A DNA stretch of 39,993 bases from a virus (lineage: Duplodnaviria; Heunggongvirae; Uroviricota; Caudoviricetes), in IMG/VR virus record IMGVR_UViG_2623620506_000005, positions 1 through 39,993 of that record. One strand, given 5' to 3'. Shown in pieces: positions 1,578-7,799 of this stretch (the stretch's first letter is position 1; each line of letters starts with the position of its first letter). A program made the translations under genes and the position numbers. The notes under the pieces are model-generated. The model had not been told where the DNA came from. It made no database searches and was given only the letters and a program-made list of their open reading frames with translations.

Positions 1578-1707
1578 GTTCTTACGCCTCGGGCTGGCTA
1601 CTTAACCCCTGACCACTGCCTGGTAACTCGAAGTATTGCCCTGCATTCTGTGGGGCGGGGTGAGGGAATGAATGAAGTTTAGAAAAATGAACATTTAAGG
1701 TCAATGT

Positions 1708-1723
1708 TTTTTTATCAAAACAT
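1708..1723. promoter_or_regulatory. candidate left operator site (OL-like)
   Basis: Reverse complement (GTTTTGATAAAAAAAC) matches the 16-bp operator-like sites found between the repressor and cro-like genes. Confidence 0.3.
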
Positions 1724-1788
1724 TTTAAGCAGGCAGCTGTTACGCCATCACTACGATGGCATACAGTTAATCAAATAGATGAGGTTGG

Positions 1789-2427
1789 TTAAATATCTTG
1801 TTGAATTTTAAAGCATACTCCCAATATGCAAGATAGATCATCCAGCATAATTGAAGGGTAGCGAGGATTCGTGGGGACTAAAAGAATATCCGGCCCTTCT
1901 ATCTCCAGTTTGCGAATGACAGGCGTTGTGGTCCCTTTGGGTAAGGCAAGGACAATATTTCCTGGTTGTACGATTCGATCGGGATCAACAAAAACTGTTG
2001 AACCATTTGGGATGGAAACTCCACCACCAGATGTCGACATACTGTCACTCTCTAGAACAACAGCAAAGGTATTGGCCGGGATTTCTCCGACAAGCTGCAC
2101 ACAAGAGGTTATTGAGGAATTTTTCATATAATCACTCCAGCTTGCTGCCTGCTGAAGTGATAGTAGCGGAACCGTTTTTATCGGCGGTAAAGATAGATCA
2201 AGCGAATCACCTGTATTTAACTCTCCTCCATTAAGAAGCCAATTTTCGTTTACTTTCAATATCTTTGCCAGTGAACTTATGTAACGCGAGGACGGCGCTC
2301 CTCCACCGTTCATCCATTGACTTACGGAGCCTTTTGATGCGCCAGTGGCATTGACAAGGTCTTTGCCTTTCAAGTTTAGCGCATGCATACGTTGGGTTAT
2401 GCGTTCAGATATTGTTTGCTTGTTCAT
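1789..2427 (-). CDS. cI: CI-like phage repressor (N-terminal HTH, C-terminal S24 LexA-like peptidase domain)
   Basis: 212 aa. N-terminal HTH (LKGKDLVNATGASKGSVSQWMNG); C-terminal S24-type region with Ser in LESDSMSTSGG and Lys in VIRKLEIEG; divergent from a cro-like gene. Confidence 0.85.
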   Translation of the reverse strand: MNKQTISERITQRMHALNLKGKDLVNATGASKGSVSQWMNGGGAPSSRYISSLAKILKVNENWLLNGGELNTGDSLDLSLPPIKTVPLLSLQQAASWSDYMKNSSITSCVQLVGEIPANTFAVVLESDSMSTSGGGVSIPNGSTVFVDPDRIVQPGNIVLALPKGTTTPVIRKLEIEGPDILLVPTNPRYPSIMLDDLSCILGVCFKIQQDI

Positions 2428-2489
2428 GTTTTGATTTTAAAACACAGATGGTTTTGTTTCTTGACTTTCTTTGGTTTTGATTATTAAAC
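2428..2489. promoter_or_regulatory. tripartite operator/promoter region between repressor and cro-like gene (OR-like)
   Basis: GTTTTGATTTTAAAAC (2428-2443), GTTTTGTTTCTTGAC (2451-2465) and GTTTTGATTATTAAAC (2474-2489) recur at 23-bp spacing; TTGACT at 2461-2466 is a possible -35. Confidence 0.5.
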
Positions 2490-2518
2490 TTTTGGCGTTC
2501 AGTTTTATGGAGCGACTC

Positions 2519-2761
2519 ATGAAAAAATCAGAAGTATTAGGCTATTTTGGCGGAGTTGTTAAAACAGCCGCCGCTCTAGGAACGTCAAAAACCACAGTCA
2601 GCATGTGGGGGGAAGACGTTCCGTGGAAATGGGCGTTGCTAATTCAGGCAGTCACTGCCGGGGCGCTCAAATATGAGTTACACATACCGACGGTTGTCAT
2701 TCCCGATTCTGATCATAATCCGCCTTCTAACCAAGGGGGGATTCATGAAAATCAAGCATGA
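2519..2761 (+). CDS. Cro/YdaS-like DNA-binding protein
   Basis: ORF 2471-2761; ATG 2519 preferred (GGAG RBS). HTH-like segment VVKTAAALGTSKTTVSMWGEDVPWKW; divergent from the repressor. Start uncertain (2507 also possible). Confidence 0.6.
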   Translation: MKKSEVLGYFGGVVKTAAALGTSKTTVSMWGEDVPWKWALLIQAVTAGALKYELHIPTVVIPDSDHNPPSNQGGIHENQA

Positions 2762-3170
2762 ACACATCCGCATGGCGATGAATGCCTGGGCGCATCCGGA
2801 CGGCGAAAAAGTACCGACTGCGAAGATTACCAAAGCGTATTTCGAACTGGGTATGACGTTCCCGGAACTGTATGACGACAGCCATCCGGAAGCCCTGGCT
2901 CGCAATACCCAGAAAATTTTCCGCTGGATAGAGAAAGACACCCCTGATGCAGTTGAAAAAATTCAGGCGTTGTTACCAGCGATCGAAAAGGCAATGCCAC
3001 CTTTGCTGGTGGCCAGAATGCGCAGCCACAGTTCAACTTATTTTCGGGAGCTGGTGGAGACGCGGGAGCGACTGGTGAGAGACGCTGATGATTTTGTCGC
3101 AGTGGCAATCGCCGGTTTCAATCAGATGAACCGTGGTGGCCCGGCAGGAAATGCTGTGGCAGTGCATTGA
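2745..3170 (+). CDS. CII-like / YdaT-family early regulatory protein (tentative)
   Basis: ATG 2745 after a strong RBS (AAGGGGGG). Position after cro and N-terminus MKIKHEHI resemble YdaT-type proteins of Rac-like prophages, from memory only. Confidence 0.45.
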   Translation: MKIKHEHIRMAMNAWAHPDGEKVPTAKITKAYFELGMTFPELYDDSHPEALARNTQKIFRWIEKDTPDAVEKIQALLPAIEKAMPPLLVARMRSHSSTYFRELVETRERLVRDADDFVAVAIAGFNQMNRGGPAGNAVAVH

Positions 3171-3241
3171 GTGATAATAGCCATATCGAATCGCTTCCGG
3201 CAACTCGTGAGTAAAAAGATTCGGTATCAGAAGAGGTGAGT

Positions 3242-4312
3242 ATGGCTAACGCCTGGCTCAGATTATGGCATGACATGCCAAATGACCCTAAGTGGCGAAC
3301 AATTGCCAGGGTGTCAGGGCAGCCAATTGCAACAGTGATGGCAGTGTATATCCACCTCCTGGTGAGCGCGTCACGAAATGTCACGCGAGGTCACATTGAT
3401 GTCACGACAGAAGATTTAGCAAGTGCGCTCGACGTGACAGAAGAGGTAATTGATTCAATTTTGCAGACGATGCAGGGGCGGGTACTTGATGGTGATTTAA
3501 TCACTGGATGGGAAAAACGCCAGGTGCTGAAAGAGGACAACGGCAATATTTCGCAAACCGCAAAATCTCCTGCAGAGCGCAAGAGGGCGCAGCGAGAGAG
3601 GGAAAGAAAGCGGGAACAAAATGGCGATTGTCACGGCGCGTCACGAAATGTCACGCACATGTCACGACGAGTCACGACAGATAAAGATACAGATAAAGAT
3701 ACAGATCAAGAAGATCAAAACACTATGGTCCATGGCGTAAAAAACGCCACGAACCAGGCAGGGGATGTTCAGACCGCCAATCCTGGTCAGCCAGCAGGCA
3801 CGACACCGGAAGCCGATTCAGCGTATGCGCTGAAAGCCGATTCGGGCGCTGTGCAGCAGGTGATGACCGCAAGGCCGGAGCAATCACACCAACTGCAGCA
3901 GCCTGAAGCCGATTCCGCCATTCAGCGGGAAGCCGATCGGGTAGTCCCGGAAAACACCGGGCAGCCTGTGGGACGAGTGGATTATCCGGATGTGTTCGAG
4001 CAGGTCTGGCGGGAATACCCGTTACGAGCCGGGGCAAACCCGAAGAAATCCGCTTTCAGTGCCTGGAAGGCCAGATTACGCGAGGGGGTGCCACCAGAGG
4101 CCATGCTGGATGGTGTGAGGCGTTACACAAGATACCTGGCTGCTACCGGGAAAACGGGAACGGAATTTGTTCAGCGAGCGACGACGTTTTTTGGACCGGA
4201 CCGGAATTTTGAAAACCCCTGGTTGCTCCCGGTAAGCGGCACGAACAACCAGCGTTGTGTTAATCATATTTCTGAACCGGACACCGAAATTCCGCCGGGA
4301 TTCAGAGGGTAA
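3242..4312 (+). CDS. replication initiation protein (lambda O-like replisome organiser)
   Basis: ATG 3242 with GAGGTG RBS (track start 3236 is GTG). Position after cro/cII; GTCACG iteron clusters inside the gene, as in lambda O/ori. Confidence 0.6.
   Translation: MANAWLRLWHDMPNDPKWRTIARVSGQPIATVMAVYIHLLVSASRNVTRGHIDVTTEDLASALDVTEEVIDSILQTMQGRVLDGDLITGWEKRQVLKEDNGNISQTAKSPAERKRAQRERERKREQNGDCHGASRNVTHMSRRVTTDKDTDKDTDQEDQNTMVHGVKNATNQAGDVQTANPGQPAGTTPEADSAYALKADSGAVQQVMTARPEQSHQLQQPEADSAIQREADRVVPENTGQPVGRVDYPDVFEQVWREYPLRAGANPKKSAFSAWKARLREGVPPEAMLDGVRRYTRYLAATGKTGTEFVQRATTFFGPDRNFENPWLLPVSGTNNQRCVNHISEPDTEIPPGFRG
3370..3410. repeat. iteron cluster 1 (4 x GTCACG at about 10-bp spacing), candidate origin of replication
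   Basis: GTCACG at 3370, 3380, 3390, 3401. Confidence 0.6.
3630..3704. repeat. iteron cluster 2 (5 x GTCACG at 10-11-bp spacing) followed by a 12-bp tandem duplication
   Basis: GTCACG at 3630, 3640, 3650, 3661, 3671; then GATAAAGATACA x2 (3681-3704), encoding DKDTDKDT. Confidence 0.6.
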
Positions 4313-4349
4313 CAGATTTCAGGTCATGGGGTAATTTTCAGGAGGGCTT

Positions 4350-4766
4350 GTGGCAAAAGTTTTTACTCCCGAACTGCGGGAAGAAGTGAAGGCGCGCATT
4401 GTGGAACTGGTATGCAGAGATGGGCGAAAAACGCGTAAACAACTGGAAAATGAAACCGGGGCGACGAGACACCTGATAGAAGTTCTGGCGAAAGAGCTGG
4501 TAGTTAGTGGCGCAGTATATGGTTCAGGACATGGAATATTTCCTTCGGAGCAGGCCAGTAAGGACTGGGGAAAAGCCCGCAAAAAAATGTCGAGAGCGGC
4601 AGTGAAAAAGAAGAGCGACCCTGACCTGATTTATTCATTGCTAGATGGCGAAATACGCCGTTACAACAGACGACAGAATATAATTTGTCGCGAGTGTCGT
4701 CAGAGCGAAGTTATGCAGCGCATACTGGAATTTTATCAGGGAAATGTTCGGTATTTATTGAAGTGA
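4350..4766 (+). CDS. hypothetical protein with HTH-like segment, in the position of a replication accessory gene
   Basis: GTG 4350 preceded by GGAGGG RBS; 138 aa; no family recognised. Confidence 0.5.
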   Translation: MAKVFTPELREEVKARIVELVCRDGRKTRKQLENETGATRHLIEVLAKELVVSGAVYGSGHGIFPSEQASKDWGKARKKMSRAAVKKKSDPDLIYSLLDGEIRRYNRRQNIICRECRQSEVMQRILEFYQGNVRYLLK

Positions 4767-4902
4767 CGAAATTAAAGAGCATTAGTTCAGATATTAATTG
4801 ACACTTCGATGGCACAGGCCCAGACCTAGTCTGGTTGTCAGCTTTGAGTCAGGTGAACGTTGGTATCGTTAGTTTGTATTAATCAACGGAGAATAGGCCA
4901 AA

Positions 4903-4932
4903 TGACTTTTCTTTGCCTCTTTTAATTATAAT
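4903..4932 (+). promoter_or_regulatory. candidate sigma70 promoter for the 5001-7799 gene
   Basis: Perfect TATAAT at 4927-4932 with TGACTT about 18 bp upstream, in an AT-rich spacer. Confidence 0.3.
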
Positions 4933-5000
4933 TCAAGTTCAATTGATTACATTGAAGTACTAATGTGAGTCCGTCAAACAAATAGCTCAAGGAATAGGTC

Positions 5001-7799
5001 ATGTGGGGAAGTGAAAACAAACAAAATCTGGACGTACTGGATCCTGTGCAGTTGGTGCGTATCGAAGCGGTACACCGGGGGTTCCTTTACCAGCATCTTT
5101 ACGCTGTAGGCTGCTTACTTTTGGCGCAGAGGGCTGCTATGGACTCAGTAACTGTCGAGCTTGATGAGGATATTGAGCTGAAATCCAAACAGGAACGTCT
5201 CTACATTCAGGTTAAAACCCGTTCAAAGCCTATTATGCCCAACGATGTGTCGGGGGCTCTGGAGCGATTTGTAAAGCTCAGAAATGAGCATACTTCGGCA
5301 AACCGCGAAGGGGTGGCTTCTTTTGTGATTATTGTAAACCAGGCGCCTGGACCGCTGCTTCAGAAGATGATTGACGATAAAAAGCTTCCTTCTGATGTTC
5401 TTATTGTCTGGCCCCGGTCGACAGCTGGACGTCACCCGGCACTTCCGCCCGCATGGAGTACTCTGGCTGATGCGGCCACATGGTGTATCGCAGAAGCAGA
5501 AAAGCTGAAATTTTCACTATTGTCCCCAGAATCCTTGATTTGGAAGTTAGCAGGGTTGGTTCAGCTTGCCGCCACCGGAGGCGATACCAATGGACAACAT
5601 ACGTTTTTCACGGAGGAACTTACTGAACTATTTGAACAGTTGATCGTTCAGCTACAGGACTTTCCTGCACCACCAGCACTGTACCGCCCACAAAACGAAG
5701 AACCTTCTCTCACATCTGGTGAGCGGATCCGTATCCTTTGTGGACTCTCAGGTGCAGGCAAGACAGCGTGGGCCGCACAGGCCGCATTACACTCCACTGC
5801 ACTTTGTGCTTATTACGACACCGGTGATCTTCCCGGTCCAGCTCTGGCCAGTACGCTGGTGCGGGAGATGGCTGCTAGATTTACAGCCCGTGACCAAGAC
5901 GGTTTGCGCAGGATTTTGCTCCCCGGAGCCAGTGGTTTTGAGGCTCTTAGGAGTTTTGATACCTACCTGAAAGAGCAGGGTACCACCTTGGTGCTGGTTC
6001 TGGATAACGCCCATCGTGTACCTGCGGAAAATCTACGGGATGTTCTGAATGCAACTACACATATTCGTTTTGTGCTGTTGTGCCAGCCTCACGAAAACGT
6101 TCGCGAACTGGAGGTCATGACGGGGCTACAGCGCGAGGGCCTGCAGGGATGGAATCTCGATACGGTAGCTGTCGTTGTAAACGATATCGGAGGATTTGCC
6201 ACCGCTATGGGATACGAGCAGCTACGGGCTTACACTGGTGGTCTTCCCCTGTATGTAGAGAGCGCCGCAAAAATCGCCGTTTCTGACTATGAGCGTAGTG
6301 TCGATGCTCTGTGTGCTGAACTCCAGCAACAAACCCATACTGCGGAAACCGCCCAAGAAATTATTCTGTCACGTGTATTTCAGGGATTTGAATCACTACT
6401 TCAGAGCGCGCTGGCATTGTTCAGTCTCTCTGACGTAGGGCTGAGTCGCGAAGAGATTTCTACGCTCCTAATCAATTCGCTGAACATTTCACCAAGCAGT
6501 GCGGCTTCTTTAATTAGGAAAATGCGCGCTACTGGCACTATTGAAATTTATGGAAACCAGACCCTGAAGGTACATGATGCTGTCAGGGGGCTAGGACTGC
6601 AACATCTGGAACTGATGGATCAGGGTATATCGAACAAAGCGCTACTAGCGCTGAAAGACCTTTTAGTTGAAAGTCTTCATAATACCCGCAATACAAAACG
6701 GTTATCGTTGTTGACTCAACTTTATATTAAGCTTAATGATGTCACGACGTTGATCGAACTCTCAGGCCAAGAAATGTTTTATGAGATGGGCGTGACGGTC
6801 GACATTCTTGCAAGCTTGGAGCGTGCTGCAACATCGGACTTATTGGGACCTGTTCATAAATTCTGGGCATTGGATGGCCTTGTTTTCGTTGAGCTTAAAG
6901 ACGGAATATCCGACCACATTGCTCAGAGGTTAAACATCATGGGAGCTTTACTTGCGGAGCACAAGTTCGGCTATCAAGAAGAGATGGCCTATGCAATGAA
7001 ACGAATGTTATTTTCGGCAGAAAGCAATGATGCACGAGAAGTTCAAAAGCTGGCACAGGAAGTCCGCCCCCAACTCCCAGATGAAGAACATAAACGCATC
7101 TTTGACTACAACCATGCCATTGCACTCTGGAGATTAAAAAAACTCAAGGATGCTGAAACATTAAGCTGTAATGTTATACAAGGGTACTATTCTTTATTTG
7201 GTATCACACCTGCTGATGTCATAGGAAAAAACGCCGACGCATTATGGAAAACTATTAATCATTCCGAAAATATGCAGGAACACTTTAAACATATGGCTGA
7301 TGCTCTGGAGTTGCTGGCCAGAATTCGTGATGCGCAGGGAAAACTGTCACCATTACTGCGTATTCATTCGATGAAGTTCTACAATCTGGCCATGGCCCCG
7401 GAATCCATGGTCAGGGTGGGCCAAGATCTGGCGGATGAGTTTGTTGCCATAAAGGATTACGACGGTGCCAAGGAAGTCATGGAGCAACATGTCCTGCCGG
7501 TTGTCAATGAGGCAGGTCTAGTACATCGACTGATTCAGGTTCGAAGCCAGTACGCAGTCATATTGGCACTATCGGGTCAGCATAAAGCAGCTGATGTCGA
7601 AATGCAGCGCCTTGCTCCCTATATCGAAGGCCTCACAGGTGTACAGCGTCAAGAAATCCAAAATCAATCAAATTACATCGTACAGCTTGCCCATAAAGCA
7701 GCAAAGACTAAATTAACTGAAGTTTTTGGTGCGGTCGGCCGGAATGAACAATGCCCCTGTGGCTCGGGAATAAAGTACAAAAAATGTCACGGTGCCTGA
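5001..7799 (+). CDS. large multidomain protein: N-terminal PD-(D/E)xK-like nuclease domain (Cap4/DUF4297-like), P-loop NTPase, helical repeat region, C-terminal SEC-C zinc motif; candidate anti-phage defence protein
   Basis: 932 aa, AAGGA RBS. Residues 53-72 VELDEDIEL...IQVK (acidic cluster plus QxK); Walker A GLSGAGKT (248-255); Walker B-like LVLVLDNAH (331-338); about 550 aa helical region; C-terminal CPCGSGIKYKKCH. Confidence 0.7.
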   Translation: MWGSENKQNLDVLDPVQLVRIEAVHRGFLYQHLYAVGCLLLAQRAAMDSVTVELDEDIELKSKQERLYIQVKTRSKPIMPNDVSGALERFVKLRNEHTSANREGVASFVIIVNQAPGPLLQKMIDDKKLPSDVLIVWPRSTAGRHPALPPAWSTLADAATWCIAEAEKLKFSLLSPESLIWKLAGLVQLAATGGDTNGQHTFFTEELTELFEQLIVQLQDFPAPPALYRPQNEEPSLTSGERIRILCGLSGAGKTAWAAQAALHSTALCAYYDTGDLPGPALASTLVREMAARFTARDQDGLRRILLPGASGFEALRSFDTYLKEQGTTLVLVLDNAHRVPAENLRDVLNATTHIRFVLLCQPHENVRELEVMTGLQREGLQGWNLDTVAVVVNDIGGFATAMGYEQLRAYTGGLPLYVESAAKIAVSDYERSVDALCAELQQQTHTAETAQEIILSRVFQGFESLLQSALALFSLSDVGLSREEISTLLINSLNISPSSAASLIRKMRATGTIEIYGNQTLKVHDAVRGLGLQHLELMDQGISNKALLALKDLLVESLHNTRNTKRLSLLTQLYIKLNDVTTLIELSGQEMFYEMGVTVDILASLERAATSDLLGPVHKFWALDGLVFVELKDGISDHIAQRLNIMGALLAEHKFGYQEEMAYAMKRMLFSAESNDAREVQKLAQEVRPQLPDEEHKRIFDYNHAIALWRLKKLKDAETLSCNVIQGYYSLFGITPADVIGKNADALWKTINHSENMQEHFKHMADALELLARIRDAQGKLSPLLRIHSMKFYNLAMAPESMVRVGQDLADEFVAIKDYDGAKEVMEQHVLPVVNEAGLVHRLIQVRSQYAVILALSGQHKAADVEMQRLAPYIEGLTGVQRQEIQNQSNYIVQLAHKAAKTKLTEVFGAVGRNEQCPCGSGIKYKKCHGA

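Follow-up and report, generated by a model that had tools for sequence, protein, structure and literature searches.

Where does replication begin in a prophage whose putative initiator gene is itself full of short, regularly spaced repeats? We addressed this question for the Caudoviricetes record IMGVR_UViG_2623620506_000005, of which the whole stretch from position 1 to 39,993 (hereafter the window, about 40 kb) was analyzed. An open reading frame in its left part, which we describe as the replication initiator gene, contains two clusters of the hexamer GTCACG that a preliminary description, made from the letters of the DNA alone, had taken for the phage origin. Our analysis leads to the same place: positions 3370-3725 are very probably the replication origin of the prophage, located inside the gene for its own initiator. 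On the best reading of the sequence, the second repeat block and an adjoining A-rich run would form the core of this origin, with the first block acting as an auxiliary array. The elements concerned are as follows.

3242-4312, + strand: replication initiator gene, open reading frame of 356 amino acids
3370-3406, + strand: iteron block 1, four direct copies of GTCAC(G/A), encoding residues 43-55 (ASRNVTRGHIDVT)
3433-3438, - strand: single inverted iteron, about three helical turns to the right of block 1, encoding the invariant residues D64-V65-T66
3630-3676, + strand: iteron block 2, five direct copies of GTCACG, in the DNA for the disordered interdomain linker
3677-3725: A-rich, purine-rich run, candidate DNA unwinding element (DUE), including two copies of GATAAAGATACA and two GATC sites
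3700-3717: module joint at the right edge of the repeat run, where similarity to other genomes breaks
3726-3756: imperfect inverted repeat with 13-nt arms and a 5-nt loop, directly to the right of the A-rich run
4241-4309, + strand: DnaT-like C-terminal tail (GTNNQRCVNHISEPDTEIPPGFRG), residues 333-356, candidate motif for docking to the host machinery

Two phased arrays and an A-rich run in the initiator gene

On the + strand, exact GTCACG starts at 3370, 3380, and 3401 in block 1 and at 3630, 3640, 3650, 3661, and 3671 in block 2. The remaining copy of block 1, at 3390, reads GTCACA; the four GTCACG reported earlier at 3370-3410 are in fact four GTCAC, three of them followed by G and one by A, whereas all five copies reported at 3630-3680 are exact. 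The iterons are spaced by 10, 10, and 11 bp in block 1 and by 10, 10, 11, and 10 bp in block 2, and the two blocks start 260 bp apart, in agreement with the helical phasing of 10-11 bp and the separation of about 260 bp given in the preliminary description. The window has 19 copies of GTCACG on its + strand, eight of which fall within 335 bp, where 0.069 would be expected (Poisson P ~1e-14). No second cluster of this hexamer was found elsewhere in the 40-kb window, the other 20 copies being scattered. The codons of block 1 specify the end of a helix (residues 29-45) and the loop ahead of the helix-turn-helix, within the predicted DNA-binding domain.

Block 2 is followed by a perfect 12-bp tandem duplication, as had been noticed before: GATAAAGATACA occupies 3680-3691 and again 3692-3703, and a degenerate third unit comes after it. 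Read in another register, the same repeat consists of ACAGATAAAGAT twice, at 3677-3700. The run as a whole has a G+C content (GC) of 0.28-0.29 and a purine fraction of 0.70-0.73. It also contains the least stable 45-mer of the gene, 3681-3725 (ΔG -49.6, compared with a gene mean of -64.6 and a standard deviation of 4.0), which ranks at the 99th percentile of instability for the whole window. The inverted repeat at 3726-3756 is predicted to form a DNA hairpin of -8.7 kcal/mol (z -2.75), and a similar repeat is present at locus L135, an E. coli prophage described below; in ori-lambda, too, a palindrome lies on the right-hand side of the AT-rich tract. Scans of 1700-5000 for promoters and terminators gave results at chance level, with this hairpin as the only nearby item. 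No exact DnaA box lies in or beside the repeats, and matches to a relaxed DnaA-box pattern show no enrichment across the window (82 versus ~75 expected).

Two GATC (Dam) sites, at 3704-3707 and 3713-3716, mark the right end of the A-rich run. Several relatives from enterobacteria and Pseudomonas have GATC at this position as well (L008, L014, L022, L026, and L027). Control of the origin by Dam methylation or SeqA is possible.

Conservation of the layout and of its DNA sequence

A scan of one genome per species retrieved 52 loci encoding relatives of the N-terminal domain of the initiator (N-domain), from Gamma-, Beta-, and Alphaproteobacteria and from Acidobacteria, with a locus GC of 33-69%. 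In about 24 of these loci, from many genera and with a GC of 34-69%, GTCAC recurs at the positions that it has in the window, gene nucleotides 129, 139, 149, and 160 and again ~387-430; GTGAC at nucleotide 193 is conserved in most members of this GTCAC subfamily. The equivalent of block 2 contains three to six copies in the relatives. Block 1 can also vary: in a variant from E. coli and E. albertii it has six copies, owing to a 21-bp insertion that amounts to two iterons and seven codons. The alternating spacing of 10 and 11 bp thus allows the array to expand in frame.

We then scored the two zones in 52 sequences, namely the window and 51 related loci. The same 5-mer is present at least twice in both zones in 41 of them, and at least three times in the second zone in 46. 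The more distant subfamilies use another word, which is alike in both blocks, is found at the same two places, and keeps the phasing of 10-11 bp. Subfamily words include GTCACG, GTAACG, and CGAACGCA; GTAACG is found in Pantoea, Enterobacter, Marinobacter, Sphingomonas, and others, a CGAACG/AACGCA subfamily in Janthinobacterium, Rhodoferax, Terracidiphilus, and others, and AACGCCAG in an alphaproteobacterial metagenome-assembled genome (MAG). That seven to nine copies, divided between two blocks, have changed in concert indicates a single reader for both. The two-block layout is a conserved design of the family. It had previously been called unusual, which holds in so far as lambda has a single array, but the layout is conserved in 41 of 52 sequences and recurs in an unrelated type of initiator (see below).

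The repeats also behave as conserved DNA. The hexamer is read in three codon phases, xxG-TCA-CGx (S-R), GTC-ACG (V-T), and xGT-CAC-Gxx (x-H-x), and the iteron period of 10-11 bp is not a multiple of 3. In a synonymous-site test on the four block-1 hexamers of 21 species-level loci without insertions or deletions, third codon positions within the hexamers were 0.97 conserved, compared with 0.55 at the other 82 (Mann-Whitney P 2.6e-5), and the spacers between the hexamers are variable among relatives. Invariant residues encoded by the iterons are S44, N46, V47, T48, G50, H51, V54, and T55 in block 1 and S141, V144, T145, and D147 in block 2. The linker, otherwise variable among the aligned proteins, is invariant only at the residues that block 2 encodes, a pattern expected if the constraint acts on the DNA. 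Serine at the iterons is specified by the rare codon TCA even in loci with a GC of at least 0.57; since the motif itself had served to delimit the regions, this count is in part circular, and we relied instead on the position-based test and on the codon usage downstream of block 2.

That downstream region, the A-rich run, is conserved as well. The sequence (A/C)(C/T)AGATAAAGATAAAGA..., or a purine-rich equivalent, stands right after block 2 in nearly every relative, including those with 60-69% GC. Within the 36 nt after block 2, GAT outnumbers GAC by 66:2 and AAA outnumbers AAG by 59:10, while the corresponding ratios elsewhere in the genes are 175:219 and 140:154. Restricting the count to loci with a GC of at least 0.57 gives 29:1 and 27:6 after block 2, versus 65:119 and 32:89 elsewhere. 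The number of 6- or 12-nt units differs between relatives, which fits slippage. The earlier suggestion of a slippage-prone linker is therefore partly borne out by the varying copy number, but the duplication belongs to a conserved (GATAAA)n element whose codon choice reveals selection at the level of DNA. This (GATAAA)n run is the best candidate for the unwinding element, and the repeats as a whole are selected as DNA and not as peptide. The comparison with related prophage genes proposed in the preliminary description found the positions and the phasing of the repeats conserved across phyla, with synonymous sites frozen, an outcome that favors an origin over mere codon-level repetition.

In a Serratia MAG (L045) and a Pantoea sp. 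(L052), the N-domain is followed by an insert similar to a GIY-YIG/T5orf172-type domain (YVYYVATTDG...VGISRNPWARCKDLK), at gene nucleotides ~320-600, and neither of the two genes has iterons that we could detect. In the Pseudomonas phages phi1, phita81A, 5399, 5371, and Marin (H55-H60), the homologous region is annotated as two 'hypothetical protein' genes, so that the gene is either split in these phages or mis-annotated across the repeat-rich linker. Close relatives of the module in phage Tritos (L002, 172-224) and in L001 (531-907) stand beside the DicF small RNA and ydfB/ydfC-like genes, i.e. in lambdoid backbones of the Qin/Kim type.

The initiator, its modular joint and its neighbors

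The initiator is predicted to consist of a winged-helix-like N-domain (residues ~1-98), a basic helix (110-126), a disordered linker (129-159), and a C-terminal half for helicase recruitment. A match to phrog_3729 ('replication initiation protein') spans the entire protein (E 1e-256). The Prokaryotic Genome Annotation Pipeline (PGAP) labels it 'phage replisome organizer' in E. coli genomes, and relatives in GenBank phage records are called 'DNA replication protein O' or 'primosomal protein I'. The full protein has no Pfam match at E ≤0.01, and none to Phage_rep_O. With the N-domain as query, only PF09681 and HTH_Crp_2 were matched at E ≤1; the N-terminal 159 residues reach a subthreshold score of 15.6 bits with PF09681 (Phage_rep_org_N; E 0.016, cut-off 23.3), in an alignment that pairs residues 5-123 with profile positions 1-119 of 121. 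From these matches, the initiator appears to be a winged-helix protein of the replisome-organizer type; it is not a homologue of lambda O. Both repeat clusters do lie inside the open reading frame 3242-4312, as described beforehand, but the frame has no match to the lambda O family, and the term 'O-like' is valid only for its function and for some GenBank annotations.

An AlphaFold (AF2) model built on a 44-sequence alignment has a mean predicted local distance difference test score (pLDDT) of 71. It places helices at residues 4-14, 16-25, and 29-45; next come a loop containing a beta bridge (46-55) and a winged-helix-like unit made of helices 56-63 and 67-77 and a hairpin at 78-88. The basic helix is modeled at 110-126 and residues 129-159 as disordered, with a pLDDT of ~36 across the codons of block 2.

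At the other end of the protein, the 24 terminal residues can be aligned over their whole length with the C-termini of DnaT in PDB entries 6aep, 2ru8, and 9zbt (consensus ...SEPDxxIPPGFRG). The match is confined to residues 333-356, at 18 bits versus a cut-off of 201, and the DNA-binding domain of DnaT (PF17948 / NF002770) was not detected in the window protein. The label 'primosomal protein I' therefore overstates the case for the window allele, because the tail alone matches DnaT. A DnaT-like tail also ends many relatives that have different C-domains. It resembles a short linear motif copied from, or common to, DnaT, in a phage that encodes no helicase loader itself. For DnaT, too, the mode of DnaB/DnaC recruitment has yet to be settled (PMC13377028).

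The gene is built of exchangeable parts. Among 5426 complete E. coli genomes, 1646 contain at least 80% of a 1.3-kb query with an identity of 95-99%, and other E. coli genomes contain the N-half only (query 1-600, H34) or the C-half only (query 618-1286, H30-H33). Because the N-half with the origin and the C-half occur separately in other E. coli prophages, the joint can be placed at 3700-3717. In L001, a variant of the N-half is fused to a DnaT-like DNA-binding domain (PF17948) and followed by a lambda-P-like gene. The C-half of the window protein is found elsewhere fused to an N-domain unrelated in sequence and followed by a DnaC-like gene (L135 and L136). The iterons of the L135 type (AAGGGGCTT) again form two blocks separated by 256 bp (L135 1660-1998, in E. 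coli strain 350), the second of which is followed by a purine-rich tandem of AAGAACAGGAACAGGA twice; Shigella phage POCJ13 (L136) has the same type of initiator. We do not claim common ancestry of the window and L135-type N-domains (BLASTP E 1.2). The two blocks of the L135 type indicate that the layout is not peculiar to one family.

The genes around the initiator gene are listed below.

1789-2427, - strand: CI-like repressor gene, upstream
2745-3170: YdaT/CII-like gene, upstream
4350-4766: DUF977/Ren-like gene, downstream
5001-7799, + strand: gene for a 932-aa ATPase, downstream, with an AT-rich gap (4770-5000) ahead of it

The phage has no P-like or DnaC-like helicase-loader gene in the window, the next genes after the initiator gene being the DUF977/Ren-like gene and the ATPase gene. 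The 932-aa frame, between the replication genes and the late region, has weak matches to a Cap4/DUF4297/LmuA-like nuclease at its N-terminus, contains an AAA_22 ATPase core, and ends in a SEC-C metal-binding motif. By these features it resembles a cargo gene for defence against phages.

A probable origin within its initiator gene, the alternatives and known systems

The earlier proposal of a phage origin is strongly supported by comparative evidence, namely the phasing, the conserved positions, the three codon phases, and the frozen synonymous sites. It is further supported by location, because block 2 and the A-rich run sit in the linker between the N-domain and the C-half, a position like that of ori-lambda and of oriL in phage SPP1. 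By analogy with lambda O at ori-lambda and with SPP1 G38P at oriL, the winged-helix-like N-domain would bind the GTCACG iterons. Since the direct iterons recur once per helical turn, the bound initiators would form a cooperative array along a single face of the DNA. Supercoiling, probably with help from early rightward transcription of the gene, would then open the DNA at the A-rich run (3677-3725), and the C-half of the initiator would bring in the host helicase machinery. Block 1, together with the inverted copy at 3433-3438, would bind the same protein and be either bridged to block 2 in one nucleoprotein complex or used to titrate or control the initiator.

Several points weigh against this interpretation. 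An association between the repeat word and the type of N-domain is trivially expected, because the iterons lie inside the gene for that domain; of this evidence, only the concerted change of the two blocks is informative. Nor is the spacing of 250-280 bp between blocks independent evidence for looping, because it is dictated by the length of the protein. Block 1 is missing in L038, L048, and L053, and is therefore dispensable there, and about ten distant relatives (L029, L031, L044, L045, and L047-L052) have no clear iterons. A Foldseek search of the PDB with the N-domain model gave no significant match (best E 0.15) and its top neighbors are generic winged-helix regulators, so the fold search is weak support only. 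Among 80 near-identical E. coli alleles (IMG/VR prophage copies, with identical protein over residues 1-159), 4 of 24 variable DNA positions fall in the hexamers versus 2.7 expected, which is about chance; this population test is uninformative because the divergence is too shallow. In the literature, we found no binding, melting, or origin-activity experiment for any member of the family.

Three other explanations of the arrays have to be considered. The arrays could bind the initiator as control sites, e.g. autoregulatory roadblocks, titration sites, or handcuffing sites, with the true origin elsewhere; in a milder form, block 1 alone would be a control site and block 2 the origin. This explanation draws on the presence of two separate arrays in direct orientation, on block 1, which lacks an A-rich neighbor and which some lineages do without, and on the example of iteron plasmids such as P1, which use a second array for copy control. 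We consider it quite unlikely, given that block 2 adjoins a conserved, DNA-selected, and easily melted A-rich run, which is the signature of an origin, that the window has no other iteron cluster, and that lambda and SPP1 have proven origins of matching layout. The origin reading that we prefer can accommodate the milder form.

A different protein might read the arrays, such as a host factor or the YdaT/CII-like or DUF977 regulator, or the arrays might serve as homology patches for module exchange. The module joint does lie right beside block 2 and the repeat run, and binding by the initiator is deduced from analogy, yet the motif changes with the N-domain subfamily across very different hosts while the neighboring genes vary, and recombination alone would leave helically phased direct repeats beside an A-rich run unexplained; we regard this explanation as highly improbable. 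The chances are slimmer still that the repeats have no function as DNA and merely reflect a repeated peptide (SRNVT and similar) or a repetition of codons that the protein requires. ASRNVT does appear at two places, and the aligned proteins conserve the encoded residues, but the hexamer is read in all three frames with a period that is no multiple of 3, its synonymous positions are frozen, the rare serine codon TCA is kept in loci with a GC of at least 0.57, and block 2 lies in a disordered, otherwise variable linker. Together with the codon skew in the A-rich run, the three-frame reading and the frozen synonymous sites effectively refute peptide or codon repetition.

Going beyond the origin reading, we tentatively suggest a bipartite design, although we find it doubtful. 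One array would lie in the codons of the DNA-binding domain, so that the recognized word fixes residues 43-55 of its own reader, and the second array would stand in the linker beside the (GATAAA)n element. This element would be no mere passive DUE but a specific loading site or single-stranded DNA-binding site common to different iteron specificities, perhaps read by DnaT-like modules. If this were true, the two-block layout in unrelated N-domains would point to a general architectural rule for such phage origins.

The initiator-origin module is very common in E. coli, with relatives in prophages of many Proteobacteria and some Acidobacteria, and the only labels given to it in annotations are 'hypothetical', 'replisome organizer', 'protein O', and 'primosomal protein I'. 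The proposed origin defines a testable minimal replicon of ~370 bp plus one gene, and the iteron layout provides a marker for annotating prophage origins. The subfamilies (GTCACG, GTAACG, and CGAACGCA) would form a natural specificity series for the co-evolution of initiator and origin, in which the site is encoded inside the gene of its reader. Iterons and a DUE inside an initiator gene are a textbook principle; what is new is the widespread two-block variant. Our literature search found no description of these iterons, of the (GATAAA)n run, or of the origin, with most subscription journals outside the search, such that a prior description is possible, for instance in a review on replication modules of phages.

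Among known systems, lambda offers a close parallel. Its origin comprises iterons and an AT-rich tract in the middle of gene O, with four iterons in lambda and six in Stx phages (PMC7466680). As in the window, the origin lies in the middle of the initiator gene, the iteron array is followed on its right by an A/T-rich tract, the gene is downstream of the early rightward promoter region, and the N-part goes with the origin while the C-part goes with the helicase-loading partner. In lambda and the Stx phages, as in the window family, the number of iterons varies in frame between relatives. The iterons of lambda are ~19 bp long, have internal dyad symmetry, and are bound by O dimers. In contrast, those of the window have a short core of 6-7 bp and are non-palindromic and direct, in units of 10-11 bp, one per helical turn. 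Unlike lambda, the window also has two separated arrays, one of them in the codons of a DNA-binding domain, no P gene follows its initiator gene, and its initiator has no sequence relationship to lambda O and no match to Phage_rep_O.

In SPP1, the AB boxes and DUE of oriL are embedded in gene 38, and in vitro, with G38P, a fragment of 356 bp is both required and enough (PMC5737612). The origin is thus again inside the organizer gene, with repeats adjoining an A-T-rich DUE, and G38P, which binds the AB boxes, is not an AAA+ protein (PMC5737612), nor is the window initiator. The two systems differ in that SPP1 encodes the helicase G40P and the loader G39P, neither of which has a counterpart in the window phage, and has a second, distant binding region (oriR), whereas the window lacks a second cluster; their iteron sequences are unrelated. 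From both lambda and SPP1, the window family differs in its short direct iterons at one per helical turn, in its two separated arrays, one of them in the codons of the DNA-binding domain, and in a (GATAAA)n run that is conserved as sequence. With DnaT, the window initiator shares only the 24-residue C-terminal tail, PF17948 being present in the variant L001 and not in the window.

Iteron plasmids (P1 incC/incA) and the origins of Staphylococcus aureus pathogenicity islands (SaPI) also combine an initiator of the winged-helix type with direct repeats in two arrays bound by one protein, and in SaPI origins the two iteron sets flank an AT-rich region. The window family resembles such iteron replicons in having identical copies of one motif that change in concert between lineages and whose synonymous sites are frozen. 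In the plasmids and SaPI, the arrays are outside the rep coding sequence and the iterons are longer, whereas in the window both arrays are inside the coding sequence.

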